From assembly GCA_963767885.1 (NCBI GenBank), contig CAVYFW010000023.1:74231-138230 (forward strand): a stretch of DNA of 64,000 nucleotides. Reading direction: 5' to 3'. The DNA comes from an uncultured Actinomycetota bacterium (GTDB lineage: Bacteria > Actinomycetota > Thermoleophilia > Gaiellales > F1-60-MAGs149). The notes beneath the pieces were generated by a model. It ran no database searches. It was not told the DNA's origin and was given only the letters and a program-made list of their open reading frames with translations. The translations under genes and the position numbers were made by a program. The stretch's first letter is position 1. Each line of letters opens with the position of its first letter. Of this stretch, positions 198 through 51,250 are shown one piece after another.

Positions 198-255
198 GTG
201 CATTTGCACCGTCCCGCGGCGGCGCGACCTGGTCGGCCGAGAGGTGCAATTGCAC
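198..255. repeat. Paired-palindrome intergenic element, copy 1
   Basis: GTGCATTTGCAC (198-209) + 34-nt GC spacer + GTGCAATTGCAC (244-255). The spacer cgtcccgcggcggcgcgacctggtcggccgagag is homologous to the spacers of the copies at 20075-20131 and 28898-28964. Confidence 0.8.
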
Positions 256-4640: not shown

Positions 4641-5545
4641 GCGCGGGGCTGGCGGGCGCCGCGCGGCGCGAGGATCCGATGCCGTTCCCCGACCACCTCG
4701 TCGCCCTCGTCGACCGCGAGCTCGCCGTGCTGGCGGTGCCGGGCGGCGACGACGACCTCGCGCCGTTCGACCAGGCCCTGCGCTACCCGCTCGAGGCCGG
4801 CGGCAAGCGGCTGCGGCCCGTGCTGCTGCTGGCGACCGTCGAGGCGCTCGGCGGCGACGTCGAGGGCGCGCTGCCCACCGCCGTCGCGCTCGAGTGCGTG
4901 CACACGTTCTCGCTCGTGCACGACGACCTGCCGGCGCTCGACGACGACGACCTGCGGCGCGGCCGCGAGACCGTCCACCGCGTCTACGGCGAGGACGTCG
5001 CCGTGCTGGTGGGCGACGCGCTGCTGACGGTCGCGTTCCGCCTCGTCGCCGAGCGGCAGGGCGGCCCCGCGGAGCGCCGGCTGCGCGCCACCGCGACGCT
5101 GGCGCGCGCCGTCGACGGCATGATCCGCGGCCAGTACCTCGACGTCCGGCCGGTGGACGGCCTCGACGAGGCGGGCCTGCGCCGCCTCTGCTCGCTGAAG
5201 ACGGGCCAGTTGATCGAGGCCGGCGTCGGGCTCGCGCTCGATCTCGTGGACCCGGCCGACGAGGTCGCGGCCGCGTACCGCGCGCTCGCCGCCGAGGTCG
5301 GCCTGGGCTTCCAGATCGTCGACGACGTGCTCGACGCCACGGGCTCCGACGACGCGCTCGGCAAGCGGGCCGGCGCGGACGCGGCGGCGGGCAAGCGCAC
5401 GCACGTCACCGTCCTCGGCCTGCCGCGGGCGCGGGAGCTCGCGCGCGCCAGCGAGGAGCGTGCATTTGCACGTCTCGACGAGCTGCCCGGCCGCCCGCGC
5501 TCGCTCGCCGCGATCGTGGAGCGCGTCTACCGGCGGGACCGCTGA
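4637..5545 (+). CDS. ispA: Polyprenyl (farnesyl/geranylgeranyl) diphosphate synthase
   Basis: 302 aa. First Asp-rich motif LVHDDLPALDDDDLRRG, second FQIVDDVLD. GTG overlaps the xseB stop. Confidence 0.88.
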   Translation: MSAGLAGAARREDPMPFPDHLVALVDRELAVLAVPGGDDDLAPFDQALRYPLEAGGKRLRPVLLLATVEALGGDVEGALPTAVALECVHTFSLVHDDLPALDDDDLRRGRETVHRVYGEDVAVLVGDALLTVAFRLVAERQGGPAERRLRATATLARAVDGMIRGQYLDVRPVDGLDEAGLRRLCSLKTGQLIEAGVGLALDLVDPADEVAAAYRALAAEVGLGFQIVDDVLDATGSDDALGKRAGADAAAGKRTHVTVLGLPRARELARASEERAFARLDELPGRPRSLAAIVERVYRRDR

Positions 5546-7962: not shown

Positions 7963-8198
7963 GCACGAAGCGTAGGTCGCGCCGTCCCGGACCGGCTGCA
8001 GGGCTCGGCGCGGCCCCGCCGACGACGTCGTCGCCCGAGGCGTCGCGCCACACCCACGACTCCCGCACGGTGCGGGCTGCGACGCTCGAGTTGAGGGACG
8101 TGGTCGGCATCCTGTCCACCAGAGCAGCGAGGCGCCGGCCGGATACGTGAGGCGCCCTGCCGGCGCGAGGGTGGCGGCCCGCCGCGGGCGCGGAGCAG

Positions 8199-8210
8199 GT
8201 GCAATTGCAC
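8199..8210. repeat. Single GTGCAATTGCAC palindrome upstream of the HesB-like gene
   Basis: Exact 12-mer. Its right flank gctcg..ggcc.acccgg resembles the right flank of the copy at 244-255. Confidence 0.75.
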
Positions 8211-8300
8211 GCTCGTGCCGTGCAAGGCCGGCCCACCCGGCGGGATTGAGTCTCGCGAGATCGGGCACCCCCGCCGGGACCCCGAGAGAGGAGATCATCC

Positions 8301-8579
8301 ATGCTCACCCTGACCGACACCGCACGCGACGTCGTGCGCGAGATGGTCGAGGCCGGCGGCGCGCCCGACGGCAGCGGCATCCGCATCAGCGCCGACGACG
8401 GCGGCGACGGCCTGTCGCTGTCGCTCGTGGCCGGCCCCGCCGAGGGCGACCAGGTCGTCGATGACGAGGGCACCCGCGTCTTCCTCGAGCCGCGCGCCGC
8501 GTCGCTGCTGGACGACAAGATCCTCGACGCCGACCGGCACGAGGACCACGTCCACTTCACGCTCGACGAGCAGGTCTGA
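8301..8579 (+). CDS. HesB/IscA-like small protein lacking all conserved cysteines
   Basis: 92 aa, MLTLTDTARDVVREMVE...GIRISADD...LSLVAGPAEGDQVVDDEGTRVFLEP... has an IscA/HesB-fold pattern but contains no Cys. RBS GAGAGGAG precedes the ATG. Confidence 0.65.
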   Translation: MLTLTDTARDVVREMVEAGGAPDGSGIRISADDGGDGLSLSLVAGPAEGDQVVDDEGTRVFLEPRAASLLDDKILDADRHEDHVHFTLDEQV

Positions 8580-8586
8580 CGACGCG

Positions 8587-8616
8587 CCTGCGGGCGTGCA
8601 ATTGCACGCCCGCAGG
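8587..8616. terminator. 30-bp perfect palindrome centred on GTGCAATTGCAC, immediately after the HesB-like gene (hairpin/terminator candidate)
   Basis: CCTGCGGGCGTGCAATTGCACGCCCGCAGG equals its own reverse complement. It starts 8 nt after the stop at 8579. Confidence 0.5.
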
Positions 8617-8623
8617 CGCCGCG

Positions 8624-8629
8624 TACGAT
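8624..8629 (+). promoter_or_regulatory. -10-like box TACGAT 6 nt upstream of the aroE GTG (leaderless-type promoter candidate)
   Basis: TANNNT hexamer, no Shine-Dalgarno between it and GTG 8636. Confidence 0.4.
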
Positions 8630-8635
8630 GCGGCC

Positions 8636-9481
8636 GTGACCGCGTCCGGCGTCTACGCCCTGCTCGGCCAGCCCGTCGCGGGCAACCCCACCCGCCAGAT
8701 GATCGAGGCCGCGTGGCGGGCGGCCGGCATCGACGCGCAGTACGTCGACCTCGAGGTCGAGCCGGCGGCGCTGCCGGACGCCTTCCGCGGCCTGCGGGCG
8801 CTCGGCTTCGACGGCGGTCACGTGACGCGGCCGCACAAGATCGCCGCCGTCGCCCTCGTCGACCGCCTGACGCCGTCGGCCGCGGCGGTCGGCGCGGTCA
8901 ACTGCCTGCGGCGCGAGGACGACGGCCTGGCCGGCGACAACACCGACGGCAAGGGCTTCCTCGCCTCCCTGCGCTCCGTCATGGACCCGCAGGGCGCGCA
9001 CGCAGTCGTGCTCGGCGCGGGCGGCGCGGCGCGGGCCGTCGCCGTGGAGCTCGCGCTGGCGGGCGCCGCGCGCATCACCGTCGTCACCCGCTCGCCGACG
9101 CCGGGACGGGAGCTCGCCGGCACCCTCCGCGAGCTCGGCACGGCGGCCGACGCCGCAGCCTTCGGCGAGGCCTACGCCGTCGGCGGCGACGTCGGGGTGC
9201 TCGTCAACGGCACGTCGGCGGGACAGGACGACCCGGACGAGGCGCCGCCCGTCGACTGGTCGTCCGCCGGGCCCGGTCTCGTGGCCGCGGACGTCGTCAT
9301 CACGCCCGGCACGCGCTTCCTGCGCGAGGCGGCGGCGGCCGGTGCGCGACCGCTCGACGGGCTCGGGATGCTGGTGGAGCAGGCCGTCGTCGGGCTGCGC
9401 TGGTGGCAGGGCCTCGAGGCCGACCGGCCCGCCATGCACGCCGCCGTGCGCGCCGCGCTCGGGCTCGACGGCGCGGCCTGA
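8636..9481 (+). CDS. aroE: Shikimate dehydrogenase
   Basis: 281 aa. ...GQPVAGNPTRQM..., VTRPHK, AVNCL...GDNTDGKGF, VVLGAGGAARAV are typical AroE motifs. Confidence 0.88.
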   Translation: MTASGVYALLGQPVAGNPTRQMIEAAWRAAGIDAQYVDLEVEPAALPDAFRGLRALGFDGGHVTRPHKIAAVALVDRLTPSAAAVGAVNCLRREDDGLAGDNTDGKGFLASLRSVMDPQGAHAVVLGAGGAARAVAVELALAGAARITVVTRSPTPGRELAGTLRELGTAADAAAFGEAYAVGGDVGVLVNGTSAGQDDPDEAPPVDWSSAGPGLVAADVVITPGTRFLREAAAAGARPLDGLGMLVEQAVVGLRWWQGLEADRPAMHAAVRAALGLDGAA

Positions 9482-10133: not shown

Positions 10134-10928
10134 GTGCCGCGGCTCGACCAGGTGCTCGTCGCGCGCGGGCTCGCCGAATCGCGGGCGCGCGCGCAGGCGT
10201 ACGTCATGGCAGGCCTGGTGCGCGTGGACGGGCGGCCGGCCGAGAAGGCCGGGATGCCCGTCGCCGAGGACGCCGCGATCGACCTGCGCGACCCGCCGCG
10301 GTTCGTCTCGCGCGGCGGCGACAAGCTCGCGACGATGCTCGACCGGCTGGGCTGGGACGTCGCCGGCGCCGAGGCGCTCGACGTCGGCGCGTCGACCGGC
10401 GGCTTCACCGACTGCCTGCTGCAGCGCGGCGCCGCACGGGTCATCGCGCTCGACGTCGGACGCGGGCAATTGCACGACCGCATCGCCGGCGACCCGCGCG
10501 TCACCCGCCTCGATCGCACGAACGCGCGCGAGCTCGAGCCTGCGCTCCTGCCGTTCATGCCGGACCTGCTGGTGGCCGACGTCTCCTTCATCTCCCTGCG
10601 GCTCGTGCTCGGCCCTGCGCTGGCGGTGCTGCGCCGTCCGTGGCGGGCGGTCGTGCTCGTGAAGCCGCAGTTCGAGGCAGGGCGCGACGAGGTGCGGCGC
10701 GGCGGTGTCGTGCACGACGACGAGGTGCGCGTGCGTGCGCTGGCCGACGTCGCCCGGTACGCTGCCAGTCTCGGCGCGGTGCTCGTGGACGCGTGCGACT
10801 CGCAGCATCCAGGCCCGGCCGGCAACCGCGAGTACCTGCTCGCCCTCGCCTCGCCCGACCACCCCGTCGCCCGTGCCCACCCCCATCTCGACGCAGACGC
10901 CCTCGCCCGTGCCGCCGTCGCGGACTGA
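10134..10928 (+). CDS. tlyA: TlyA-family rRNA (cytidine-2'-O)-methyltransferase
   Basis: 264 aa. S4-like N-terminus LDQVLVARGLAESRARAQAYVMAGLVRVDG and FtsJ-type SAM site ALDVGASTGGFTDCLL. Followed by nadK and recN as in mycobacteria. Confidence 0.88.
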   Translation: MPRLDQVLVARGLAESRARAQAYVMAGLVRVDGRPAEKAGMPVAEDAAIDLRDPPRFVSRGGDKLATMLDRLGWDVAGAEALDVGASTGGFTDCLLQRGAARVIALDVGRGQLHDRIAGDPRVTRLDRTNARELEPALLPFMPDLLVADVSFISLRLVLGPALAVLRRPWRAVVLVKPQFEAGRDEVRRGGVVHDDEVRVRALADVARYAASLGAVLVDACDSQHPGPAGNREYLLALASPDHPVARAHPHLDADALARAAVAD

Positions 10929-13061: not shown

Positions 13062-16449
<3,388 letters not shown>

Positions 16450-18930: not shown

Positions 18931-20061
18931 ATGAAGGTCGGCGTCGTTCGCGAGATCAAGCCCGACGAGTACCGCGTCGCCCTCACGCCCGCCGGCGCCC
19001 GCGAGCTCGCCGCGCAGGGCCACGAGGTCGTCGTCGAGGCCGGCGCGGGCGTCGGCAGCGCCTTCCCGGACGAGGCGTACGTCGGGGCCGGCGCGCGGCT
19101 CGCCCGGGTCGACGAGGTGTGGCAGGCGTGCGACCTCGTGCTCAAGGTCAAGGAGCCGCTCCCCGACGAGTACGGGCGCCTGCGCCCCGGGCAGATCCTC
19201 TTCACCTACCTGCATCTCGCGCCGGCGCGGGAGCTGACCGAGGCCCTCGTCGCGTCGGGCGCGATCTGCATCGCCTACGAGACGGTCGAGACCGACGACG
19301 GGCGGCTGCCGCTGCTCGCGCCGATGAGCGAGGTCGCCGGTCGCCTCGCGCCGCAGATGGGGGCCCTGGCGCTGGAGAAGCCGATCGGCGGGCGCGGCAT
19401 CCTGCTCGGCGGGCTGCCGGGGGTGCCGCCTGCGCGCGTCGTCGTGGTCGGCGGCGGCATCGTCGGCTACAACGCCGCGCTCATCGCCGTCGGCATGCAG
19501 GCGGACGTGTGGATCGTCGAGCGCTCCGTCGACCGCATGCGCGAGCTCGAGATGATGCTCGACGGCCGGATCACGCTGCAGATCTCCACGCGCTCCTCGC
19601 TGGAGGAGGCCGTGCAGGACGCGGACCTCGTGATCGGCGCGGTGCTGGTGCACGGCGCCCGCGCGCCGAAGCTCATCACGCGCGACATGCTGCCGCTGAT
19701 GAAGCCGGGGGCGGCGATCGTCGACGTCGCGATCGACCAGGGCGGCTGCGTCGAGACCGCGCGGCCGACGACGCACTCCGAGCCGACGTACGAGGTCGAC
19801 GGCGTCGTCCACTACTGCGTCACCAACATGCCGGGCGCGGTGCCCATCACGTCGACCAAGGGCCTGACGAACGTCACGCTGCCGTACGCCGAGCAGCTCG
19901 CGGGCCTCGGCTTCGAGGAGGCGGTGCGGCGCTCGCGACCGCTCGCCCGCGGCGTCAACGTCATGCGCGGCCACATCACGAGCCGCCCGGTCGCGGAGAG
20001 CCACGCGCTCCCGCACGTGCCGCTGGCGCAGTTCGTCGAGGGCATCGACTCCGCGCTCTGA
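18931..20061 (+). CDS. ald: Alanine dehydrogenase
   Basis: 376 aa, [22 protein letters not shown]..., [13 protein letters not shown]. Confidence 0.95.
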
Positions 20062-20072
20062 GCCGCCCGACG

Positions 20073-20131
20073 AGGTGCAATTGCACCTTCGCGGCGCCGC
20101 GCGACCGGTTCGCCCAGAGGTGCAATTGCAC
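20073..20131. repeat. Paired-palindrome intergenic element, copy 2
   Basis: AGGTGCAATTGCACCT (20073-20088) + 33-nt spacer cttcgcggcgccgcgcgaccggttcgcccagag + GTGCAATTGCAC (20120-20131). Lies between the convergent ald and P-II stops. Confidence 0.8.
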
Positions 20132-20287
20132 GTCCGCGCACGCGATCCGCGAGGGGCGAGAACGGACCCGGCGCCCGGCATCCCCCGGATGGTGAGGGGC
20201 GCCGAGCGCCGGGGCATCACGCTCCGGCCTCGGCGTGATGCTCTTTGCACCCTGGGGTGCCGGATGGCGGACGGAAGGTCGCTGCGC

Positions 20288-20314
20288 GGGGGGAGCCGGT
20301 TACCGACTCCCCCC
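20288..20314 (-). terminator. Hairpin just downstream of the P-II stop codon
   Basis: 8-bp stem GGGGGGAG/CTCCCCCC with 11-nt loop, 8 nt beyond the stop at 20323-20325. No U-tract. Confidence 0.4.
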
Positions 20315-20322
20315 GCGGCGCA

Positions 20323-20700
20323 TCACGCTCCGGCCTCGGCGTGATGGTTCTCGTGATGGGCTTCGACGACCGTCGCTCCGTCCTCCCCGGTGCGGATGCG
20401 GACGGCGCGCTCGACGGGCAGCACGAAGATCTTCCCGTCGCCCATCTCTCCCGTGCGGGCGTGGTTCAGGATCACCTCGATCGCGGCGTCGACGTCCTCG
20501 TCGGCGACCACCATCTCGAGCTTCAGCTTGGGGCGCAGGAACAGCGTCTCGGTCGCGCCCCGGTAGTGCTCCACGATGCCGCCCTGGCGGCCCGAGCCGA
20601 GCGCCTCGACCACCGACAGGGACGGCAGGCCGATGGCGTACAGCTCCGCGCGGATCGCCTCGAACCGGTCGTGGCGGATGAAGGCCTCGATCTTCTTCAT
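20323..20700 (-). CDS. glnK: P-II family nitrogen regulatory protein (GlnB/GlnK-like, atypical T-loop, His-rich C-terminal tail)
   Basis: MKKIEAFIRHDRF...TGEMGDGKIFVLPVERAVRIRTGE. Has its own RBS GAGGAG 7 nt before ATG 20700. Position 51 is Glu instead of Tyr. Confidence 0.85.
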   Translation of the reverse strand: MKKIEAFIRHDRFEAIRAELYAIGLPSLSVVEALGSGRQGGIVEHYRGATETLFLRPKLKLEMVVADEDVDAAIEVILNHARTGEMGDGKIFVLPVERAVRIRTGEDGATVVEAHHENHHAEAGA

Positions 20701-22325: not shown

Positions 22326-24188
22326 ATGGAACTACCGGCCGAGCTGCTTGCGCGCGTCCTCGCACGCGTGGACGACTACGTCTACGTCTGGGAGTACTGG
22401 CCCGACGGCTCGTCCGCGCCGCTGGTCGAGAACATCGGCTCGTTCGCGTTCTTCGGCGACGTCGAGGACGGCCGGCGGGCCGAGGACGTCTGGCGCGACA
22501 GCGTCCACCCGGACGACCGCGCCGCGTACGACGCCGTCACCGACGCGCAGGCCCGCGGCGAGGGCGGCGTCGCGGAGTACCGGCTGATGCGGCAGGACGG
22601 CACGCAGCTCGACGTCTTCGACCGCTGGCGCGGGCACGTCCGCGAGGACGGCGTCTGCATCGCCGAGGGGATCATCTCGGACGTCACGAAGCTCAAGGCC
22701 GCCGAGGCCGCACTGCGCGAGCAGCAGGAGCAGTTCCGGCTGCTCGCGACCTCGGCGCCGGTCGGCATCTACCTCGCCGATCTCGACGGCGGCCTGACCT
22801 TCGTGAACGAGCGCTGGCGCGAGATGTACGGCCTCGCCGGCGACACCGCGCTGGGCGACTCCTGGGCCGAGGTCGTGCACCCCGAGGACCGCGAGGCGTC
22901 GGTCGCCGCCTGGCTCGCGGCCGTGCGCGAGGGGCGCGACTTCGAGCACGAGTTCCGGCTCCTGCTCGGCGGCCTCACGCGCTGGGTGTCGTCGCGCGCC
23001 TGCCCGGTGCGCGACGCCGAGGGCCGCGTGACGGGCTACATCGGCACGGACTCCGACGTGACCGAGCGCCGGGCGGCCCAGACCGCGCTCGAGCGCCTGA
23101 CGCGCACCGACGCGCTGACCGGCCTCGCCAACCGCCGCCAGCTCTCGTCCTGGCTGCGCGACGGCCTGCGCCGCACGCCGACCGGCGTCGGGCTCGTGCT
23201 GCTGGACATCGACCACTTCAAGCGCATCAACGACACGCACGGGCACGGCATCGGCGACCGCGTCCTCGTCGAGGCCGGACGCCGGCTGAAGGCGGCGCGC
23301 AGGGACGCGTTCGTGGCTCGCTGGGGCGGGGAGGAGTTCGCCGTCGTGCTGCCGGCGACGGGCGACGAGGACGACCTGCTGCAGATCGCGGAGGCGATGC
23401 GGGCGACGATCGGGGCCGACGACATCGCGGGCCTGCACGTCACCGCATCGGCCGGCGCCGCGCGGACGGGCGACGGCATCGCGAGCTCGACCGAGCTCAT
23501 CGAATCCGCCGATCGCGCGCTCTACGCCGCCAAGCGCCGCGGCCGCGACCAGACCCGGCTCGCGTCGCGCCTGACCCCGCAGGACCTGATCCCGGAGGAG
23601 CCCGAGGCCGTGCGCGTGGCGCAGGGCCTGGCGCTCGCCGCGTCGGTGCGCGAGGGGGTCGCGGAGGTCGGCGCGAGCCGCGTCGCCGACCTGGCCAGCG
23701 AGGTGGCGCGGCGGCTCGGCCTGCCCGAGCACGTGCAATTGCGCTGCCGGCTGGGCGGCCTGCTGCGCGACGTCGGCAAGGTCGCACTGCCCGATCGCGT
23801 CCTGTTCGAGCGCGGCCCGCTCGACGACGAGGCCTGGGCCATCATGCGGACCCACAGCGCGATCGGCGAGCGCATCGTCCTGCAGAACCCGCTGCTGCGC
23901 GACGCGGCGCCGGCCGTGCGCCATCACCACGAGCGGTGGGACGGCAGCGGCTACCCGGACGGTCTGGCGGGCGACGCCATCCCCATCGAGGCGCGCGTCG
24001 TCGCGGCCTGCGACGCGTACGGCGCCATGACCAGCGACCGGCCGTGGCGCCGGGGGCTGGAGCACGAGGACGCGATCGCGGAGCTTCGCCGGGTTGCGGG
24101 CTCCCAGCTCGAGCCCGACGTCGCAGCCGCGGTCTGCGACGCCGTGGACGAGGGCCGGCAGTCGTCGCCCCTGCGCGGCGCCGCGTAG
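22326..24188 (+). CDS. PAS-PAS-GGDEF-HD-GYP signalling protein (diguanylate cyclase / c-di-GMP phosphodiesterase)
   Basis: 620 aa from ATG 22326. Two PAS-like segments, GGDEF domain with RWGGEEF, HD-GYP domain with HHERWDGSGYPDG. Confidence 0.88.
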   Translation: MELPAELLARVLARVDDYVYVWEYWPDGSSAPLVENIGSFAFFGDVEDGRRAEDVWRDSVHPDDRAAYDAVTDAQARGEGGVAEYRLMRQDGTQLDVFDRWRGHVREDGVCIAEGIISDVTKLKAAEAALREQQEQFRLLATSAPVGIYLADLDGGLTFVNERWREMYGLAGDTALGDSWAEVVHPEDREASVAAWLAAVREGRDFEHEFRLLLGGLTRWVSSRACPVRDAEGRVTGYIGTDSDVTERRAAQTALERLTRTDALTGLANRRQLSSWLRDGLRRTPTGVGLVLLDIDHFKRINDTHGHGIGDRVLVEAGRRLKAARRDAFVARWGGEEFAVVLPATGDEDDLLQIAEAMRATIGADDIAGLHVTASAGAARTGDGIASSTELIESADRALYAAKRRGRDQTRLASRLTPQDLIPEEPEAVRVAQGLALAASVREGVAEVGASRVADLASEVARRLGLPEHVQLRCRLGGLLRDVGKVALPDRVLFERGPLDDEAWAIMRTHSAIGERIVLQNPLLRDAAPAVRHHHERWDGSGYPDGLAGDAIPIEARVVAACDAYGAMTSDRPWRRGLEHEDAIAELRRVAGSQLEPDVAAAVCDAVDEGRQSSPLRGAA

Positions 24189-28897: not shown

Positions 28898-28964
28898 GTG
28901 CAATTGCACCTCCGCGGCGGCGCGCTGTCGGCGTGCCGGCGCGCGCCGAGACGTGCACTTGCAC
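28898..28964. repeat. Paired-palindrome intergenic element, copy 3
   Basis: GTGCAATTGCAC (28898-28909) + 43-nt spacer starting ctccgcggcggcgcg and ending gccgagac + GTGCACTTGCAC (28953-28964). Fills the gap between the xerD stop (28894) and the convergent MFS stop (28980). Confidence 0.8.
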
Positions 28965-31429: not shown

Positions 31430-32704
31430 ATGGCGGCCCCGCGCGTGTTCCGCGACGAGCGCAAGCTGACGTACCTCAACGTCGTGGCCGCCGAGCGGCC
31501 GCTGGCTGGCCCGGTCTCGGCGGAGACCCACGCCGCCGCGCGCCGCTACCGGCTGTCGCGCCTGCGCGAGCAATTGGACGCGTTCGACTGCGCGGCGATC
31601 CTGCTCTACGACCCCGTCAACATCCGCTACGCCCTGGACGTCTCGAACATGGCGCTGTGGATGGCGCACAACCCGACGAACTACGCGCTCATCGTCGCCG
31701 GCGGCCCGGCCATCTACTTCGGCTACGCGGGCTCCGAGCACCTCGCCGCGGGCCTGGAGGGGGTCGACGAGGTGCGGCGCTCGACGGCGTACATGTTCCA
31801 GGACGTGCCGGGACGCGTGGAGGAGACGGCGCGGGCCTGGGCCGCCGAGATCGCCGAGCTCGTGCGCGCCGCGGGCGGTGCGGGCGCGCGGCTCGCGATC
31901 GACGTCTGCGACCCGGCCGGGCTGCAGGCGCTGCAGGCGCTGGACGTGCAATTGCTCGAGGGCCGCGAGCTGACCGAGAAGGCGCGGATGCTCAAGTCCG
32001 CGGACGAGCTCGAGCTGATGCGCTGGACGGTCAAGGTCTGCGACGCCGCGATCCAGCGCATGTACGACGTCTCGGCCGAGCCGGGGCGGACGGAGCTGGA
32101 GATCTGGGCCGAGCTGCACCACGAGAACATCCGCAACGGCGGGGAGTGGATCGAGACGCGTCTCCTGACCTCGGGGCCGCGCACCAACCCGTGGTTCCAG
32201 GAGGCGTCGCAGCGCATCACGGAGACCGGCGACCTGCTGGCGTTCGACACCGACATGATCGGCCCGTACGGCTACTGCGCCGACCTGTCGCGCTCGTGGA
32301 CGGTCGGACACGTGCCGCCGACGCCGCACCAGCGCGACCTGTACCTGCACGCCCGCGAGCAGGTGGAGCACAACATGGCGCTCCTGCGCGACGGGCTCAC
32401 GCTGCGAGAGTTCAACGAGCGGCAGTGGCAGGTGCCCGAGCGGTTCCAGGCCCGCGAGTACGGCTGGGCCTTCCACGGCGTCGGCATGGCGGACGAGTAC
32501 CCGTGCTCGCCGACGCCCTCGACGTTCGCGGGCTCGGCCTACGACCGGGCAGACGTCCGCCTGGAGGCCGGCATGGTCGTGTGCCTGGAGAGCCTCGTCG
32601 GCGAGGAGCAGCGGGGCGAGTGCGTCAAGCTCGAGGCGCAGGTCGCGATCACGCGGGACGGCATCGAGCGGCTCGATGCCTTTCCCTGGGAGGACTGGGG
32701 CTAG
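31430..32704 (+). CDS. M24-family metallopeptidase-fold enzyme (Xaa-Pro dipeptidase/creatinase-like)
   Basis: 424 aa. Creatinase-like N-domain plus pita-bread domain (...DLLAFDTDMIGPYGYCADLSR...FHGVGMADEYP...CLESLVGEE...KLEAQV). The ORF opens at TTG 31421. Confidence 0.8.
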   Translation: MAAPRVFRDERKLTYLNVVAAERPLAGPVSAETHAAARRYRLSRLREQLDAFDCAAILLYDPVNIRYALDVSNMALWMAHNPTNYALIVAGGPAIYFGYAGSEHLAAGLEGVDEVRRSTAYMFQDVPGRVEETARAWAAEIAELVRAAGGAGARLAIDVCDPAGLQALQALDVQLLEGRELTEKARMLKSADELELMRWTVKVCDAAIQRMYDVSAEPGRTELEIWAELHHENIRNGGEWIETRLLTSGPRTNPWFQEASQRITETGDLLAFDTDMIGPYGYCADLSRSWTVGHVPPTPHQRDLYLHAREQVEHNMALLRDGLTLREFNERQWQVPERFQAREYGWAFHGVGMADEYPCSPTPSTFAGSAYDRADVRLEAGMVVCLESLVGEEQRGECVKLEAQVAITRDGIERLDAFPWEDWG

Positions 32705-33301: not shown

Positions 33302-34666
33302 ATGGCCGAGGACCGAGACGTCGTCATCGTCGGCGCCGGCATCGCCGGGCTCGTCGCCGCGCACCGCCTGCAGGACCGTGCACCGCTGGTGCTGGAGGCC
33401 GGCGATCGCGTCGGCGGGCGCATGTGGTCGCAGCGGCGCGGCGACCTGGCGCTCAGCGTCGGCGCGCACATGTTCCCGCCGCCGGACTCCGTGATCGGAG
33501 GCCTCGTCGCCGAGCACGGGCTCGAGGTCATGCCGATCACGGGCTCCATGCTGAACATCCACTACGGCGGGCGGCTGGTGCGGGACACACGGCCGGAGCT
33601 CATGCCCTTCCGCCTGCCGATGTCGCTGCGCGGTCGCATCTCGTTCGCGCGCGCCGGGCTGAAGGTCAAGCGCGACGGCGACCGCTACATGAAGCTCATC
33701 CAGCACCGGCCGGGCGACACCGAGGCCGCGATCCGCATGCGCGGGCTGCAGCACGGCGGCGACCGGACGTTCGCCGAGTTCCTCGGGCCGCTGCACCCGG
33801 AGGCCGACGCGATCTTCCGCGCCCTCGCCAACCGCTCGATCGCCGAGCCGGAGGAGATCTCGCAGGGCGCCATGGCGGCGCTGTTCGGCCACGTCTGGGA
33901 CAGCGGCGACCTCGGGCGCAACATGCGCGGCGGCTCGGGCCAGCTGCCGGAGGCGCTCGGCGAGTCGCTGGGCGACGTGATCCGCCTGCGCTGTGGGGTC
34001 GAGAGCGTGCAATTGGACGGATCCGGCGTGCGCGTCCGCTACGCCGGCGAGGGCGGAAGCGGCGAGGTGCGCGCCCGCACCGCGATCGTCGCCGCGCCCG
34101 GTCCGCTGGTGCCGGGGCTGCTCGGCGACATCCCGTCCGACGTCGCGTCTGCCCTCGCCCTGATCCGCATGGGCCCGATGGTCGTCGTCAGCCTGCTGAC
34201 CGACGAGACCGAGCCCATGCCGTGGGATGGCCTCTACTCGGTGCTGACGCCGGACAAGCGCTTCAACATGATCTTCAACCACGCCGACTTCGCCCACGGC
34301 GCCGGGCTGCCGCGCACGGGCAGCGTGCTCATGGTCTACGGCGGGGGCGACCGCGGGCGCGCCTACCTGGAGCGCACGGACGACGAGCTGCGCGACGACT
34401 TCCTGGCCGACCTCTACACCGTCTTCCCACAGGTGCGCGGCCGCATCGTCGAGACGATGGTCAAGCGCTGGCAGTACGCCGGGCCGTTCGCGGCGCCCGG
34501 TCGCTGGCGGGCGCAGGCGACCCTGGAGCGCGGCATCGACGACCGCATCTTCTTCGCCGGCGACTGGGTCAGCGACTTCGTCTCGATGGAGACCGCCGCG
34601 CTGACGGCCGTGGACGCCGCGGCGAACGTGCGGCGCGTGCTGGGCGAGGTCGGCGCGCCCGTATGA
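33302..34666 (+). CDS. FAD-dependent amine oxidase / protoporphyrinogen-oxidase-like oxidoreductase
   Basis: 454 aa. Dinucleotide fold [18 protein letters not shown]...GGR, C-terminal FFAGDW. Confidence 0.8.
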
Positions 34667-42149: not shown

Positions 42150-43556
42150 TCAGCCGCAGCCCGGTCCGGCGAGGCGCGCGATCGGCTGCGGCAGGCGCGT
42201 GCCGGCGCCGACCCGCGGTCGGGTCGCGCTCGCCGTGCGCAGGCGCGCGATCGCGGTCCGCACGGCCACCCGCGGGCCGGTCAGGACGGCGACGACGCGC
42301 CCGGTCGGCACCTGCGTCCAGCCGCCGAAGCGGTAGGCGTCGACGCCGCGCACGCGGAAGCGCACGGCGTGCCGGGTGCGCGGACGGGCGCAGCCGAGGC
42401 GGGGTCGCCGGGGGTAGATCGCGATGGTGAGGCCCCGCGGGCACGTCGCGCGGTCGATCGAGCAGTCGTAGACGAAGGTGAGGGCCTGCGCGGTGCGGGT
42501 GACGCCGGTGAGCGCGTAGCCGGGCATCCGCGCGCCGGGCCAGAGCAGCGGGAACGCGCGGAACGCCCGCACGCCGGCGAGGGACAGCGCGCTGCTCGAG
42601 GCGTCGAAGCTCGGGCCCTCGCGGAGGCTCGCGGGGCCGACGCCGGCGGTGCAATTGGACGGTCCGGGCACGCTGCCGGGGCGCCAGGCGGGGCCGAGCT
42701 CGGACACGAGCGAGCGCGTGATCTGCGTCGGGCACGAGCCGTCGCGCCCGAGCGTCACCAGCTCGACCTGGTCGCGCCGCACGTCGAGGCGCTCGACGAC
42801 CAGCCGCGTCCCGTCCGCCGACCATGACGGCGCGCCCTGCACCAGCCGGCCGCTCGTGATGGGATGGAGGTCGTTGCCGTCCGCGGTGACGAGCATGACG
42901 GTGCCCTGCAGGCCGTTGGCGTGGGCGAACGCGATGGTGCCGCCGTCGGGCGAGACGGCGGGGTCGCCGTCGGCGCCGGATGCGGTCAGGCGGCGCTGTC
43001 CGGATCCGTCCAATTGCACCGTCGCGACGTTCGTCGGCCCGGGCAGGGCGTCCCTGCCGACCTCGAACTCGGTGAAGGCGAGGCGGTCGCCCGTGGGAAA
43101 CCAGCTCGGGGCGAGCGCGAAGTGCTGGTGCGGCACGGGCTGAAGGCCGGAGCCGTCCGGCGCGACGAGCCACAGCCGCGGCTCGAACCGCTCCGGGCCG
43201 CCCGTCGTGACGCGGACGACGGCGAGGCGCTGCCCGTCGGGCGACCACGCCGGCTGGCTGGCGCCGCGCAGCACGCGGTGGCGCCCGCTGCCGGCGGCGT
43301 TCGCGATCCAGAGCCAGCCGCCCTGCTCGTACGCGAGCCGCTGCCCGTCCGGCGACCACGCGGGATCGCGGGCGGATGCGTAGCTCGCCACCACGGGCGG
43401 CACGATCGTGCGCAGCGCCCGCCCGCTGCCGTCGACGAGGTCGATGCCGCCCGCGCGCGCGACCGCGATCTCGCCGCCGGCCGCAGCGGCGGACGCGGGG
43501 GCGAGCAGCGACGCGAGCACGGCCATGCCGAGCACGACGGCCAGGGGGCGACCCAC
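42150..43556 (-). CDS. Secreted TolB-like beta-propeller protein with C-terminal domain of unknown function
   Basis: GTG 43556 gives signal peptide VGRPLAVVLGMAVLASLLAPASAAAAG. PD40-type repeats PAWSPDGQRLA (x2), PAVSPDGGTIAF, PSWSADGTRLV. Confidence 0.75.
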   Translation of the reverse strand: MGRPLAVVLGMAVLASLLAPASAAAAGGEIAVARAGGIDLVDGSGRALRTIVPPVVASYASARDPAWSPDGQRLAYEQGGWLWIANAAGSGRHRVLRGASQPAWSPDGQRLAVVRVTTGGPERFEPRLWLVAPDGSGLQPVPHQHFALAPSWFPTGDRLAFTEFEVGRDALPGPTNVATVQLDGSGQRRLTASGADGDPAVSPDGGTIAFAHANGLQGTVMLVTADGNDLHPITSGRLVQGAPSWSADGTRLVVERLDVRRDQVELVTLGRDGSCPTQITRSLVSELGPAWRPGSVPGPSNCTAGVGPASLREGPSFDASSSALSLAGVRAFRAFPLLWPGARMPGYALTGVTRTAQALTFVYDCSIDRATCPRGLTIAIYPRRPRLGCARPRTRHAVRFRVRGVDAYRFGGWTQVPTGRVVAVLTGPRVAVRTAIARLRTASATRPRVGAGTRLPQPIARLAGPGCG

Positions 43557-43805: not shown

Positions 43806-45119
43806 ATGAGAAGGAACCCGTCGCGGTGGGCGTTGCTCCTGCTGGCCGCGCTCGTGGCCGCATTCTTGGTTGCCGCGTGCGGCGACGACGATGAGGGAGA
43901 CAGCTCCGCGGCCCCCGCCGAAACCGCGGCGGCGACGTCCGCGGCAGCAGACACGGCCGCGCCGGCGGAGTCGTCCGCCGCGGCAGCGGAGTCGTCCGTC
44001 GCACCGGTGGAGTCGTCCGTCGCAGGGGCGGAGTCGTCCGTCGCAGAGGCGGAGTCGTCCGCCGACACGGGCGGCGGCGAGGCCGTCAGCCTCGACGGCG
44101 GTGGCAAGGCCGTCACGGTCCTGATGCCGTCCACGACCAACAACTACCTCGCGGAGTGGGTGCGAGGGCTCCAGGCGGCCGCAGAGGCGAACAACTACAC
44201 CGTCAAGATCATCGAGAACAACTTCGACCAGGCCGAGCAGGACACGCAGGTCCAGCAGGAGATCGCGAGCGGCGAGAAGCCGGCCATCTACGTCTTCTGG
44301 CCCGCGGACTCCAAGGCCGGCGTCGCCTCGCTGCGCCAGCTCGCGCAGACCGACGTCCCGGTCGTCGTCGCGAACCAGCCTCCGCCGCCCGAGGCCGAGG
44401 AGTTCATGGCCTTCTACTCCGGCGTGGACGACTTCTTCAACGGGCAGGTCTCCGGCGAGCTGATGCTCAAGGCGCGCGACGCGGCGAAGGCCGCCGGCAA
44501 GCAGCTCTCCAGCGAGAACGGCAACCTGCTGGAGATCAAGTTCGCGCCGGGCTACCAGGCCTCCGAGGCGCGCACCGCCGGCTTCACCGACGCCACCAAG
44601 GACGCGCCGTTCGACGTCCTCGCGTCCGAGTACGCAGGCTTCGACAACGAGGCGGGCTACAACACGACCTCGCAGCTCATCGCGGCCAACAAGTCGAAGG
44701 GCATCGACTTCCTGTACGCCCACAACGACGCCCTCGCGGCCGGCGCGATCCAGGCCATCAAGGAGGCCGGGCTCGTGCCGGGCAAGGACATCTGGGTGGT
44801 CGGCGGCACCTGCCACGGCGACCTGTCCGCGCTCGAGGCCGGTGAGCAGTTCGGCTCCGGCCTGCAGGCCGCGCGCCTGGAGGGCCAGGGCGTGCTGCTC
44901 GACGTCGCGCGCTACTTCGCCAACGGCGAGACCGTCAACGACGGCAAGTTCTACGGCGAGCCGACGGCGGAGCCGCCGACGGAGACGGGCCCGATCTCGC
45001 GGTACAACTACATCCCGAACCCGGGCGTGCAGTTCACCTCGGATCCGGCCGAGAACAAGCGCCTGCTGGACGAGACCATGCTCTGGGGCGACAGCATGCG
45101 CAACCTCTGCACCTACTAG
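43806..45119 (+). CDS. Sugar ABC transporter substrate-binding lipoprotein (RbsB/type-1 periplasmic binding fold)
   Basis: 437 aa. RBS AAGGAGGAGGGAG. Lipobox LVAAC. Low-complexity linker, then VTVLMPSTTNNY...AHNDALAAGAIQAIKEAG. Confidence 0.85.
   Translation: MRRNPSRWALLLLAALVAAFLVAACGDDDEGDSSAAPAETAAATSAAADTAAPAESSAAAAESSVAPVESSVAGAESSVAEAESSADTGGGEAVSLDGGGKAVTVLMPSTTNNYLAEWVRGLQAAAEANNYTVKIIENNFDQAEQDTQVQQEIASGEKPAIYVFWPADSKAGVASLRQLAQTDVPVVVANQPPPPEAEEFMAFYSGVDDFFNGQVSGELMLKARDAAKAAGKQLSSENGNLLEIKFAPGYQASEARTAGFTDATKDAPFDVLASEYAGFDNEAGYNTTSQLIAANKSKGIDFLYAHNDALAAGAIQAIKEAGLVPGKDIWVVGGTCHGDLSALEAGEQFGSGLQAARLEGQGVLLDVARYFANGETVNDGKFYGEPTAEPPTETGPISRYNYIPNPGVQFTSDPAENKRLLDETMLWGDSMRNLCTY
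43965..44069 (+). repeat. Five tandem 21-bp in-frame repeats (G[C/T]GGAGTCGTCCG[T/C]CGC...) encoding the (A/V)ESS(V/A)Axx linker of the binding protein
   Basis: Units start at 43965, 43986, 44007, 44028, 44049. Confidence 0.85.
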
Positions 45120-45197
45120 CTCGACCGAAGGCAGTCCCGGGCCCGGGTCGGGCCGCCGCGACCGGCGGTCCGACCCGGGCCCTCTATCCGGCTCCAG

Positions 45198-45994
45198 GTG
45201 GAGGACATGGGGAAGCTCGACAATCGCGTCGCCCTCGTCACGGGCTCGGCCCGCGGCCTCGGCGCCGGCATCGCCCGCGCGCTGGCCGCGGAGGGCGCGA
45301 CCGTGGTCTGCGCCGACGTGATCGACGCCGTCGGAGACCGCGGCCAGCCTGCCGGCGCGGCTCCGGCGGCACCGCGGCCGAGGCCGCCCGACTCGACGTC
45401 ACCGATCGCCAGGCCTGCTTCGCGCTGGTCGACGACATCGTGGCGCGCCACGGCCGGCTCGACATCCTCTGCAACAACGCGGGCGTCGCGCAGCCCATCG
45501 AGGACATCGTCGACTCCGCGGAGGCGACGATCGACCGGGTGCTGGCCGTCAACGTCAAGGGCGTGATCAACTGCACGGCCGCCGCGGCGCGGCCGATGAA
45601 GGCGCAGGGATACGGCCGCATCGTCAACACGGCGTCGCAGGTCGGAAAGCGCGCCTGGCCGGGTTGGGGCGTCTACTCGGCCTCGAAGTTCGCGGTCATC
45701 GGCGTGACCCAGGTGGCGGCGCTGGAGCTGGCCAAGGACGGCATCACCGTCAACGCCATCTGCCCCGGCACGATGGTCACGGACATGATGTACACCGGGT
45801 TCGGCGAGGCCGCGCAGACCGCCGGCGCCGACCGCGACGAGCTCATCGCCACCCACGCCGCGGGCATCCCGCTGGGCCGCATGGGCACCGCCGACGACAT
45901 GGGGCGCATGGCCGCGTGGATCGCCTCCGACGACGCCGGCTACACCACGGGCGCGCAGTTCAACCTGACGGGCGGCGAGGCGGTCTTCTTCTGA
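45198..45994 (+). pseudogene. Short-chain dehydrogenase/reductase, frame interrupted twice within ~30 nt
   Basis: ALVTGSARGLGAGIA...VVCADVIDAV (frame 0), ETAASLPA (frame 1), GSGGTAAEAARLDVTD...NNAG...YSASKFAV (frame 2). Shifts ~45335 and ~45357. Confidence 0.75.
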
Positions 45995-46467
45995 TGGCGA
46001 CGCCGCCGTTCGACCATCTCGGCATCCTCGTCGACGACCTCGACGAGGCCATCCCGCGCTGGGAGCGGCTGCTCGGCGTGACCTTCATGGCCGCACGCAC
46101 CGTGCACGTCGACCGGATGGTCGAGGCGGACGGCAGCGAGGGCGAGCTCGACCTGCGGATCGCCTTCAGCGTCGACGGCCCGCCGCGCTACGAGCTGCTG
46201 GAGGTCGTCGGGGACGGGGTCTACGGCCCCGGCAACGCCGGCGGCCTGCACCACGTCGCGATCCTCTGCGACGACGTCGAGGGCGAGCGCGAGCGCCTGG
46301 TCGGCCTCGGCGCCCGGGTGATCGGCGGGCAGTACCGGCCGGACGGCAGCGCGATCGTGTCGTACCTCGATCGCGGCGTCCTCGACGGGCTGCCGGTCGA
46401 GCTGCTCGACGCCACGGTCGCCGACGCCATCGGGGCCTGGGTGCGCGGCGAGGAGGCGACGCCGTGA
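45994..46467 (+). CDS. VOC/glyoxalase-family protein
   Basis: 157 aa, [15 protein letters not shown]...[15 protein letters not shown] overlaps the upstream stop (ATGA). Confidence 0.75.
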
Positions 46468-48037
46468 GTGCCGACGGCGCGCTGCTGGTGGCGGCGCGGG
46501 GCATCTCGAAGCACTACGGCCCGGTCCGGGCGCTCGACGACGTCTCGTTCGAGCTGCGCCGCGGCGAGGTCATGGCCCTGCTCGGCGAGAACGGCGCCGG
46601 CAAGTCGACGCTGGTGAAGATCCTCGTCGGGCCTCGTCGATGCCGGACGACGGCACCATCGAGATCGACGGCCAGCCCGCCGATCTCTCCAGCGCCCGCC
46701 GCTCCCGGGCGGCCGGCATCGCGGTGGTGCAGCAGGAGCTGAGCCTCGTGCCGACCCTCACGGCCGGCGAGAACGTCTTCCTCGGCGGGCGCTTCGGCGG
46801 CCTCTGGACGGGCCGGCGGGTGGCCGAGCGGGCGCGGCCCGTACCTGGCGCAGGTCGGGCTCGGCGACCTGAACCCGCGCACCTACGTCGTCGTCGCTCT
46901 CGGTGGCCGAGCGCCAGCTCGTCGAGATCGCGCGGCTGCTGGCCCGCGACGCGCGCATCCTGATCCTCGACGAGCCGACGGCGGCGCTCTCCGACGTCGA
47001 GATCGCGCGCGTGAACCGCGTCGTCCGCTCGCTGGCCGACGCGGGCAAGGGCGTGATCTACGTGACGCACCGCCTGGGCGAGGTCTTCGACATCGGCGAC
47101 CGGGCGACGGTCTTCCGCAACGGCAAGAGCGGCGAGCCGCCGTCCGCGTCGCCGAGCTGACCATCGACAGCCTCGTCGAGCGCATGCTCGGACGGCCGCT
47201 GGAGGCGATGTTCCCGCCGCGCGCGGAGACGTTCGGCGACCTGCGCCTCGAGGTCGAGGGCCTCGAGGCGCCCGGGCTCGTGGAGCCCGTCAACCTCACG
47301 CGTGCGGCAGGGCGAGATCCTCGGCCTCGCCGGACAGATCGGCTCCGGTGCGCCGACGCTGCTGCGCGCGGTCGCCGGCATCGCGCTCACGGCCACGGGC
47401 ACCGTGCGCGTGGACGGCGAGGACGTGCCGAGCCACTCGCTGCAGCGCGCGATCGCCCGCGGGATCGCCTACTGCTCCGACGACCGCAAGCGCGACGGCG
47501 TCTTCCAGATCAAGACCGTGACCCAGAACCTGACGGCGCCGGCGCTCGATCGCGTGAGCCCGGGCGGCATCATCTCCCGCTCCAAGGAGCGCGCCCTGGC
47601 CCGGCAGCTCGCGTCCTCGTTCGCCATCGACCAGAGCCGCCTCGGGTTCTACGCCCGCACGCTCAGCGGCGGCAACCAGCAGAAGGTCGCTCTCGGCAAG
47701 TGGCTCGGCGTGGAGCCGCAAGGTCCTGCTGGTGGAGGAGCCGACGCGCGGCGTCGACGTCGGCGCCCGCGCCGAGATCTACAGCCACCTCCGGCGCCTC
47801 GCGTCGGAGGGCATGGCCGTCGTGTTCGCGTCGACCGACCTCCCGGAGGTGCTCGGCCTGGCGGACACCGTGGCGACCTTCTACCGGGGGCGCCTCGTCC
47901 GCGTCGCGCCCGCGGCCGACCTCAGCCAGGCGGAGATGATGCGCGACGTGACGCACGAGCGGGCGGAGGCCGCGCCCGCGGCGGGCGCGCCGTCCGCGAC
48001 CGCAGTGCTGCCCCCGTTCTCCGGCGGCAGCGCATGA
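46464..48037 (+). pseudogene. Sugar ABC transporter ATP-binding protein (tandem ATPase domains, RbsA/MglA-like), frame interrupted about eight times
   Basis: [87 protein letters not shown] all lie in frames advancing 0,1,2,0,1,2,0,1,2. Confidence 0.8.
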
Positions 48038-49020
48038 GTGCCGAGACCACGATCCGCTCCGAGGGGATGCTGGACAGGGTCGACCGGCGCAAGCTCGTCG
48101 GCCCGGCCGTCATCGGCGGGGCCGTGGTGCTGCTGCTGATCGTCGGCGGCATCCTCGAGCCGAACTTCCTGTCCTACGACAACCTGCTCGCCGTCGTGCG
48201 TGCGGCGTCGATCGTCGGCATCGCCGCCGTCGGCATGACCTTCATCACGCTGACCGGCAACTTCGTCTCGCTCTCCACCGAGCAGACCGCGATCATCTCC
48301 GGGATCCTGTTCGCGCTCGCGCTGTCCAACGGCTGGCCCGTGGCGCTGGCGGCGCTGGTCACGTTCGCCGCGGCGATGGCCATCGGACTCGTGCAGGGCG
48401 CGATCGTCGCCGCTCGGCATGAACCCGATCGTGACGACGCTCGGCGCCGGCGCCGCCATCTTCGGCCTCGCGAACGTGCTCACGGACAACCGCACGCGTC
48501 AACACGCGCACCGACGCCGGCCGACTGGATCGGCACCGCGCGGCCCGCCGGCATCCCCACGCAGGTCATCGCGTTCGCGGTGCTGACGGTGGTCACGATG
48601 CTCGTGCTCTCGCGCACCCGCTTCGGGCGCCGCGTCATGCTGACGGGCGCCAACCGCGCGGCGGCGACGGCCACCGGCCTCCGGGTCGCCACGACGACGA
48701 TCCTGGCCTTCGTGATCGCGAGCGGCTTCGCGGCCCTCTGCGGGATCATGGTCATCTCGCAGGTCGGGCAGGCGAAGACCACCAACTTCGAGGGCTTCAC
48801 GATCGACGTCGTCGCCGCGGTGCTCGTCGGCGGCACGGCGATCCAGGGCGGCGAGGGCTCGACGCTGCGCACCGCGATGGGCGCCATCTTCATCGCCCTG
48901 CTCGCCAACTTCATGCTGATCCGGGACTACTCGTACGGCGTCCGCCTCGTGATCACGGGCATCGTCGTGGCGGTAGCGGTCGTCGGCTTCCACCTGCTGC
49001 GGACGAGGAACGCCGGATGA
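48034..49020 (+). pseudogene. Sugar ABC transporter permease (RbsC/AraH type), frame interrupted about three times
   Basis: The ORF is open, but 48415-48520 reads as Arg-rich nonsense. Shifted frames give LGMNPIVTTLGAGAAIFGLANVLTDNRT / VNTRTDAG / ADWIGTARPAGIPTQV. Confidence 0.7.
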
Positions 49021-50809: not shown

Positions 50810-50823
50810 TCGGAAGGCCGCCG

Positions 50824-51231: not shown

Positions 51232-51250
51232 GACGAAAGGCAGCCAGCGG

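Follow-up and report, generated by a model that had tools for sequence, protein, structure and literature searches.

The palindromic 12-mer GTGCAATTGCAC, with the tolerant core GTGCA-NN-TGCAC, recurs in a 64,000-nucleotide stretch of contig CAVYFW010000023.1 (positions 74,231 to 138,230; hereafter the window, numbered from its first nucleotide) from an uncultured Gaiellales bacterium of the class Thermoleophilia (Actinomycetota). We conclude with high confidence that the word is specific to this lineage and has built up at the DNA level, irrespective of gene boundaries. A mismatch search of the window returned six exact copies, at 244, 8199, 8596, 20075, 20120 and 28898, just as an earlier note on this DNA had placed them, and nine copies with one mismatch. 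Three of the latter (198, 5460 and 28953) had also been reported correctly and six (10464, 23733, 31946, 34007, 42649 and 43008) had been overlooked. The 15 sites at ≤1 mismatch compare with 0.06 expected from dinucleotide-preserving shuffles, a more than 200-fold enrichment, and 15 sites were reached in none of 100 shuffles. The CAATTG core was 16-fold over-represented relative to a first-order Markov expectation and was the sole outlier among all 6-bp palindromes, the runner-up being enriched 2.3-fold. Half-sites alone were not enriched in the window. Copies occur at a density of ~1 per 4 kb across the first 43 kb, and the block from 44 to 64 kb contains none. The sequence of this lineage that was covered amounts to ~100 kb, and it is for that stretch that over-representation was found.

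Since the window is extremely GC-rich (~75% G+C, above the 72% assumed earlier) and of low complexity, we considered chance, compositional bias or an assembly artefact. We give this explanation virtually no credence and count it as already refuted: three independent null models were exceeded (dinucleotide shuffle, Markov and synonymous-codon shuffle), and four other samples, assembled independently, contain the same sites. GC-rich noise was all that a generic repeat search over the full window gave. A search of the whole window against Rfam gave no match at the gathering score, and relaxed E-values yielded only matches 25-60 bits under threshold. Plasmid BLAST returned no match, two viral scans returned nothing relevant, and a literature search for the word, within the library covered, found no relevant paper and no description for Thermoleophilia or other Actinomycetota. 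The empty Rfam, plasmid, virus and literature searches bear out the earlier proposal of a non-random repeat family without a described counterpart, and GTGCAATTGCAC is apparently an undescribed iterated-palindrome or uptake-signal-like genome tag.

The element had been described as intergenic. This holds only in part: nine of the 15 CAATTG cores, and seven of the 15 copies at ≤1 mismatch, are in coding DNA and written in rare codons. Coding frames were set by the third-position G+C (GC3) signal and comprised 16,900 codons. In 300 synonymous-codon shuffles, which held every protein sequence and the overall codon usage fixed, the expected numbers in coding DNA were 0.10 CAATTG and 0.007 copies at ≤1 mismatch, compared to the 9 and 7 observed. 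CAA accounts for 11 of 431 Gln codons and TTG for 16 of 1782 Leu codons; the combination CAA-TTG is used in 7 of 44 Gln-Leu pairs, five of them preceded by GTG. The frames used are V-Q-L-x as GTG CAA TTG (most), R-A-F-A-R and S-N-C-T. The copy GTGCATTTGCAC at 5460-5471, in the 3' end of a polyprenyl synthase gene, reads cGT GCA TTT GCA Cgt (R-A-F-A-R), all in rare codons. Near-copies on the + strand are GTG CAA TTG GCC (V-Q-L-A, two mismatches) at 2783-2794, GGG CAA TTG CAC (G-Q-L-H) at 10464-10475, GTG CAA TTG CGC (V-Q-L-R) at 23733-23744 in an HD-domain gene, and GTG CAA TTG CTC (V-Q-L-L) at 31946-31957, with an additional CAA-TTG Gln-Leu pair at 31571-31576. A further + strand near-copy lies within the 20-nt patch GTGCAATTGGACGGATCCGG (34007-34026; V-Q-L-D-G-S-G) of an amine-oxidase-like gene. 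A minus-strand gene with PD40 repeats carries the near-copy GTGCAATTGGACGGTCCGGG at 42649-42668 of the + strand, where the gene reads S-N-C-T, and one at 43000-43019 on the minus strand (V-Q-L-D-G-S-G), which shares its 20-nt patch with 34007. Intergenic copies of the word are, as a general statement, exact and coding ones near-copies.

Such rare-codon copies point to DNA-level selection or drive for the word itself, which would not be the effect of a repetitive extragenic palindromic (REP) sequence, a miniature inverted-repeat transposable element (MITE), an operator or a terminator. This coding behaviour fits an uptake-signal-like word or one like the highly iterated palindromes (HIPs) of cyanobacteria. 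An origin of CAATTG by methyl-cytosine deamination of CAGCTG was rejected, as the intermediates CAGTTG and CAACTG occur once and not at all, compared to seven CAATTG.

The motif was followed in related sequences. These were L031 (1 kb, 97% nucleotide identity to the window), L040 (about 98% nucleotide identity over 500 nt; XerD 99%), L035 and L039, which are two stretches of one 124.9-kb contig from the European Nucleotide Archive (ENA), L047 from a third related lineage (78% protein identity), and the more distant L036-L038 and L041-L046, whose EF-P is 81-96% or XerD 84% identical. Identity of L035 and L039 to the window is ~81-92% (130-nt segments) near the efp sites and ~79-95% further on. 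The nearest named EF-P homologues, at 81% identity, are annotated 'MAG: Gaiellales bacterium' (MAG, metagenome-assembled genome). Motif-positive lineages are represented by ENA ERZ25039586 contig_5078, ERZ25039580 contig_98007 and ERZ25039504 contig_18887 and by GenBank JBBQFB01, and ERZ25039488 contig_6518 (2.47 Mb) is one of the motif-free sisters; several of these ENA assemblies have broken-up gene calls of the kind usual for long-read data. All five sites that overlap between the window and L035 are retained, some as islands of identity in diverged spacers. Both 12-mers upstream of efp are kept in two other assemblies; the spacer between them differs at about 13 of 34 positions in L035, and the flanks beyond it are near-identical to the window. 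At 8199, AGGTGCAATTGCACG stands as an identity island within a divergent-promoter spacer that is badly diverged from L035. The L035 orthologue of 5460 is GTGCACTTGCAC, in which Phe (TTT) has become Leu (CTT) and the rare GCA codons and motif arms are retained, showing that the two central bases are free. Every site is kept in L040, where both copies of the xerD locus are exact, and L047 has one exact copy. In L039 the position downstream of ald has no more than a degenerate CTGCAATTGCCG with spacer-like sequence, and the xerD position has a single copy.

The ~72 kb of more distant relatives contains no site and one CAATTG, and the orthologous codons in motif-free relatives are ordinary. Motif-free sister lineages make it possible to follow the direction of change one codon at a time. 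At 2783 the series runs from GTC CAG CTC or GTC CGG CTC (motif-free L037 and L038) through GTG CGA CTG (L035) to GTG CAA TTG (window). In L039, the counterpart of 23733 is GTG CGA TTG CGC, that of 31946 is GTG CAA CTG GTC, and at 34007 CAG CTC stands for the window's CAA TTG. Absence from distant relatives, retention in close ones and partial loss in L039 together show that the word is young and lineage-specific, and that it is both maintained and turned over.

The motif-free block at 44000-64000 encodes short-chain dehydrogenases, an ABC transporter, hydrolases and a citryl-CoA synthetase-like gene; for the last, the sole gene searched, close homologues are few. The syntenic stretch of L047 (1-19000) is likewise without the motif, and the block may be an older acquired island. 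A five-copy 21-bp tandem repeat (CGC.CCGG.GGAGTCGTCCG-like; 43958-44062) falls within the 5' part of the gene for a periplasmic binding protein (43806-45119), where it probably specifies a linker of 7-residue repeats.

Three intergenic loci carry two copies each on the + strand. Doublet 1 (198-255) consists of GTGCATTTGCAC (198-209), a 34-nt GC-rich spacer and GTGCAATTGCAC (244-255). It begins 110 nt past the stop of the upstream gene and lies 5' of efp (312-878), as noted before. Doublet 2 (20075-20131) comprises two exact copies (20075 and 20120) around a 33-nt spacer and begins 13 nt past the stop of ald (alanine dehydrogenase). Doublet 3 (28898-28964) comprises GTGCAATTGCAC (28898), a 43-nt spacer and GTGCACTTGCAC (28953), and occupies the gap between the stop of an xerD-like gene (28894) and a convergent stop (28980). 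The claim that two doublets exactly fill gaps between convergent stops is true for one of the two, since doublet 2 ends 191 nt short of the convergent stop at 20323. All three are 3' of, and co-oriented with, a + strand gene. The previously stated centre-to-centre distances (46, 45 and 55 bp for doublets 1 to 3) are correct. Homology of the spacers, also stated before, and a repeat unit of about 60 bp (~58-67 bp) are supported by the alignments, in which the doublets align across the unit and their flanks do not, and by spacer likeness above shuffled controls (z = 5.0, 3.7 and 2.5). A covariance model built from the doublets scored 81, 83 and 73.6 bits on the + strand for doublets 1, 2 and 3 and 28-36 bits on the - strand (33 for doublet 1). 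It recovered the three known doublets only, with no additional degenerate ones in the window, and its matches in other lineages are owed to the 12-mers alone. Bases around the 12-mer are not conserved between copies.

Two exact copies stand outside the doublets. One (8199-8210) belongs to a divergent promoter region, with a minus-strand gene that starts at about 8109 on one side and a HesB/IscA-like gene (8301-8579) on the other. The other (8596-8607) forms the tip of a 36-bp perfect palindrome, GCGCCTGCGGGC-GTGCAATTGCAC-GCCCGCAGGCGC, on the + strand (8585-8620), which begins 6 nt 3' of the HesB/IscA-like stop.

Two further repeats were seen beside the doublets. Directly 5' of the left 12-mer of doublet 1 is a perfect hairpin, GGGCCGGCTCC-TCCG-GGAGCCGGCCC (169-195). 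It is unchanged in L031 and L035 and probably serves the upstream gene as its 3'-end hairpin. Past doublet 2, a 27-nt direct repeat, GCATCACGCTCCGGCCTCGGCGTGATG, occurs at 20215-20241 and 20321-20347, with a G/C hairpin, GCGGGGGGAG...CTCCCCCCGC, between the copies. The second copy forms the final codons and stop of a minus-strand ammonium-transporter/P-II gene, and the first is intergenic, 106 bp away. Both copies are kept in L039, so the repeat is an old duplication of the gene's 3' end.

A scan for the exact pair in 185,579 species genomes, among which the genome of the window is not included, gave matches in Bradyrhizobium and Acidithrix that are treated below. The same arms are found in other Gaiellales-type contigs of 69-74% G+C, namely L009 and L022 (one MAG) and L032-L034 (soil metagenomes). 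Here the central dinucleotide is AT, AG or CT and the word is often extended to the 20-bp palindrome TTCCGTGCAATTGCACGGAA. It forms head-to-tail arrays of up to 13 units of CGTGCA(AT/AG/CT)TGCACGG with a strict 22-bp period and variable linkers of 3-10 nt (L022 637-832 and 5866-6060; L009 57-135; L032 2295-2405; L033 1290-1815; L034 22-170). The arrays usually begin a few bases past a stop codon and are sense-oriented; their right arm, TGCACGG, is invariant and the left arm varies without compensation. The array in L033 is interleaved with a second repeat of ~60 bp. The MAG of L009 and L022 also has a coding copy, GGT GCA ATT GCA CGG (G-A-I-A-R). A metagenome scan for the doublet returned three contigs only, all with 22-bp arrays and no doublets. 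The window doublets are not themselves such arrays: read as three 22-bp units with a decayed middle unit, by inspection they match at 3 of 12 positions.

Bradyrhizobium and other alphaproteobacteria contain the doublet GATGTGCAATTGCACATC-N(14-50)-GATGTGCAATTGCACATC, often within the longer palindrome GAACTACGATGTGCAATTGCACATCGTAGTTC (L001, L002, L004-L008, L010-L013, L015, L016, L018, L020, L021, L023-L026, L029 and L030). The half-sites resemble the TraR tra box, ATGTGCAGATCTGCACAT. The 12-mer core and doublet architecture are the same as in the window; the flanks and spacer, in contrast, are unrelated, the phylum is another, and there are about two copies per 8-kb locus. We rejected these doublets as relatives, as they form a separate REP-like family, and the shared 12-mer is probably convergent. 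Matches in Acidithrix ferrooxidans (L003, L014, L017, L019 and L027) were likewise rejected as tandem 25-bp duplications inside a transposase open reading frame (ORF). There, three to six units of GTGCAATTGCACACAACCTGGCACG at the 3' end of a multi-copy transposase ORF repeat the peptide GAIAHNLAR out of frame, the mark of a slippage-prone transposase C-terminus.

Several copies within the window appear to be related by copying. The 20 nt of GTGCAATTGGACGGATCCGG at 34007-34026 are identical to those at 43000-43019 on the opposite strand, in an unrelated gene, and a third near-identical copy lies at 42649. Seven of 15 nt in the 34007 patch are different in the orthologous stretch of L039, with two amino acids changed, within a 135-nt comparison of 78.5% identity; from the sequence, this looks like a short-tract replacement and not like seven independent substitutions. 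Paralogous spacers within the genome are alike at up to z = 5.0, compared to z = 3.1 for the efp spacer against its L035 orthologue. Two other accounts were rejected. The L035 efp spacer is not an inversion between palindromic arms, as the direct orientation gives z = 3.1 and the inverted one z = 1.4. The segment 42649-43019, with inverted 20-mers at its ends, is not an inserted MITE, as the PD40-repeat frame and GC3 signal run through it and its 371 nt are not a multiple of 3.

One of the main rival explanations is a REP system in which the doublets are REP doublets forming hairpins (REPINs). The doublets would then be a replicative unit moved as single-stranded hairpins by a REP-associated tyrosine transposase (RAYT) encoded elsewhere, and single copies would be decayed remnants. 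RAYTs are IS200/IS605-like Y1 transposases. The likeness is real: the palindromes are intergenic in part, the three homologous 58-67 bp doublets have inverted 12-mers, a conserved spacer and a fold as one long hairpin, singles occur beside doublets, and the doublets follow stops in the orientation of the upstream gene. The xerD locus alternates between the single and double state in different strains, copies within the genome are closer to each other than to orthologues, and related lineages have clustered arrays. We nevertheless find this explanation unlikely. Seven copies in rare coding codons, and the stepwise synonymous change toward the word, are not an outcome of REP transposition, and with these 7 of 15 copies and 9 of 15 CAATTG cores in coding frames the element is not extragenic. 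Its unit is much shorter than that of REPs, which have a conserved 5' GTAG-like tetranucleotide beside an imperfect palindrome of 20-40 nt; no such head was found. The earlier note had likened the element to REPs and had reported that no transposase or RAYT-like gene is in the window. The second statement agrees with our gene tables and Pfam scans, which covered most of the window and contained no transposase or RAYT domain, and none was found in about 75 kb of syntenic relatives. The first finds no support in signs of REP-type mobility, as target duplication, GTAG head and RAYT gene were all not found. The 12-mers could act as terminal inverted repeats of a MITE, but no doublet is flanked by a target duplication. 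The doublets stand at the same three loci in diverged strains, and so there is no sign of recent movement.

Each 12-mer can fold as the mini-hairpin described previously, and each doublet folds as a single long hairpin with the 12-mers forming the stem (z = -2.0 to -4.1, doublet 2 being lowest). The 8596 hairpin folds at -43.2 kcal/mol (z = -7.6). In L035 it keeps 16 of 16 pairs by way of two compensatory changes and a U-G wobble, the latter able to pair in the sense transcript alone, and comparable apex hairpins follow recO in L047 and xerD in L039. Some copies are thus also constrained as hairpins at gene 3' ends. These hairpins, the position of the 8596 hairpin 6 nt past its stop, and the sense-oriented doublets and Gaiellales arrays after stops are what an RNA-level element would predict, with the word at the apex of 3'-end hairpins which end transcription or shield mRNA from 3' exonucleases and with the doublets serving as bidirectional terminators between convergent genes. 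We regard such an element as distinctly unlikely to explain the word. At three of the five intergenic loci (1-400, 8050-8700 and 20000-20400) no U-tract terminators were found; the hairpins there lack T runs, and the GC-rich hairpin followed by a U-tract that defines an intrinsic terminator is not present. Three sites (198, 244 and 8199) lie 5' of genes, and coding copies give a 4-bp stem only. No variant within the 12-mer is accompanied by a compensating change, and the arrays combine a variable left arm with an invariant right one. Loop and stem are conserved as sequence, not merely as pairing.

No sigma-70-type promoters were found at the same three loci, and the empty promoter and U-tract scans agree with the earlier view that neither a simple operator nor an ordinary terminator describes the element. 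If the word were an ordinary transcription-factor operator, and efp and the HesB/IscA-like gene belonged to its regulon, this would explain why palindromic 12-mers are kept 5' of efp and in a divergent promoter region. A promoter-like site at 59278-59316 also bears on this: TTGCAC-N17-TAGCGT, followed by GTGCAATCGCAT with two mismatches to the motif, lies 5' of the citryl-CoA/succinyl-CoA synthetase-like gene and is kept at L047 9927-9965, where the orthologous protein is 78% identical. Judged from sequence, it is plausible that the half-site TTGCAC also serves as a -35 hexamer in this organism. The majority of copies, however, are inside genes or after stops, their density exceeds what a regulon would require, and an operator does not explain the spacer sequence common to the three doublets; we consider it very unlikely. 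A pure RNA role or an ordinary operator accounts for subsets of the copies only. The element lacks the defining features of REPs (extragenic position and GTAG head), MITEs, intrinsic terminators and every Rfam family.

We propose an explanation in four steps for how the word spreads and is used. First, a sequence-specific protein with two-fold symmetry (a dimer) would recognise the word in double-stranded DNA, which is suggested by the conserved sequence and arms, the free centre, the uncompensated variants and the 22-bp (two-turn) phasing in other Gaiellales. Second, new copies would arise and be homogenised by short-patch copying between sites (gene conversion), which would leave doublets within the genome more alike than the efp doublet and its own orthologue. 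Third, a copy just past a stop codon may contribute to a 3'-end hairpin, as its tip at 8596 and as its stem in the doublets. Fourth, and least certain, the word may be a self-DNA tag for uptake or recombination. This last and weakest step is suggested by the resemblance to the DNA uptake sequences (DUS) of Neisseria and uptake signal sequences (USS) of Pasteurellaceae, Haemophilus among them, seen in coding copies in tolerated frames, hairpin pairs past stops, lineage specificity and the bare 44-64 kb block, and by the reported conservation of HIP1 by selection and its links to methylation and transformation. We give the whole chain, from iterated palindrome through dimer reading, short-patch copying and hairpin use to self-tag, somewhat less than an even chance. 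That GTGCAATTGCAC is specifically the tag of a novel Gaiellales self-DNA recognition system, in which a dimeric protein, possibly nicking or uptake-coupled, drives short-patch conversion, is possible and rather more doubtful.

The other main rival is a set of chromosome-organisation sites, in the manner of SlmA and its SlmA-binding sequences (SBS), MatP-matS, Noc and its Noc-binding sites (NBS), and ParB-parS, kept by chromosome-level selection with genes included. SlmA sites (GTGAGTACTCAC) and the matS sites of MatP (GTGACRNYGTCAC) are GTG..(A/T centre)..CAC palindromes of 12-13 bp; dimers read them, and chromosome-level selection maintains them at scattered positions in coding DNA. The window word shares this layout, its 12 bp forming a palindrome of GTG...CAC arms around an AT centre. 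Sites created in genes through synonymous changes and kept between close relatives, their clustering in 0-43 kb with none in 44-64 kb, and the 22-bp-phased arrays of related lineages are all consistent with such a role. We think it improbable, since ~1 site per 4 kb is roughly tenfold above the known systems, sites turn over rapidly between lineages about 15-20% diverged, and sites selected independently of one another would not be expected to have homologous spacers or to show patch copying. Genomes carry tens of SlmA or MatP sites, which, unlike the window element, are not duplicated together with their flanks. We know of no SlmA (a TetR-family protein) or MatP in this lineage.

Among described systems, HIPs and DUS/USS are those that the window word matches in every sequence-level feature that we tried. 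HIP1 and alternate HIPs (GCGATCGC) are short cyanobacterial palindromes, 15- to 300-fold over-represented inside ORFs as well as between them. They are conserved among related genomes, specific to lineages, replaceable and without gene-level function; repair, chromosome structure and transformation have been proposed as roles, and selection-based conservation and a link to methylation have been reported (PMC5861425, PMC4390886). The window word is likewise lineage-specific, exceeds composition- and codon-aware expectations by more than an order of magnitude, and is conserved within and between ORFs in close relatives, with partial turnover relative to L039. It differs in being a 12-mer with an AT centre in a 75% G+C actinobacterium, whereas HIPs are GC-rich 8-mers, in its lower density (about 1 per 4 kb), in its homologous ~60-bp doublets and the 22-bp arrays of relatives, and in having no known cognate methyltransferase. 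The changes that create it run from GC to AT, which would be opposite to the methyl-C-dependent T:G repair model. Cyanobacterial HIP1 is reportedly described in recent preprints as a self-DNA tag for uptake or recombination. DUS and USS are dense, lineage-specific words of 9-12 nt that lie in tolerated coding frames and as hairpin pairs past stops, and their accumulation is best explained by drive and not by per-site function. Over the ~100 kb covered, the window word is similarly over-represented in coding and non-coding DNA with a frame bias from tolerated peptides, and its intergenic copies pair as hairpins at gene 3' ends in the 20075 and 28898 doublets and the 8596 hairpin. DUS and USS are asymmetric and make hairpins by inverted pairing, whereas the window word is itself palindromic. 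Copying between paralogous sites is not a feature of DUS/USS, and the likeness of the window word to them is at the sequence level.

Several points weigh against the proposed explanation. Neither a binding protein nor a methyltransferase, competence gene or nuclease was identified, the genes of the window give no pointer to one, and those scanned in the window and syntenic loci have no methyltransferase domain. Known uptake sequences are not palindromes, and to our knowledge natural transformation is undocumented in Thermoleophilia. As the conservation of the 8596 hairpin shows, a part of the copies at least is under constraint as single-stranded structure, and a reading purely as double-stranded DNA does not need such constraint. 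The V-Q-L-H of pyrG (15703-15714), an ideal candidate position, is still GTG CAG CTG CAC, so any drive is far from saturation. Short-patch conversion is inferred from one clear case and from spacer likeness in low-complexity GC-rich DNA, and the genome-wide density and the contrast between core and island are extrapolated from the ~100 kb.

Words such as HIP1, DUS/USS and REP are common, and their origin and role are still argued after decades. The window offers a clean case, in which the word is essentially impossible by chance and patch-wise copying may be visible. In practical terms, the word is a sharp lineage marker for binning and a defined bait for its cognate protein. Thermoleophilia are an abundant and almost uncultured soil class, in which we know of no such element, competence system or chromosome-organising site. 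If the reading of the word as a self-tag spread by conversion is true, it would be the first USS- or HIP-type molecular drive in Actinomycetota, with its copying tract (about 20-60 nt) directly visible.

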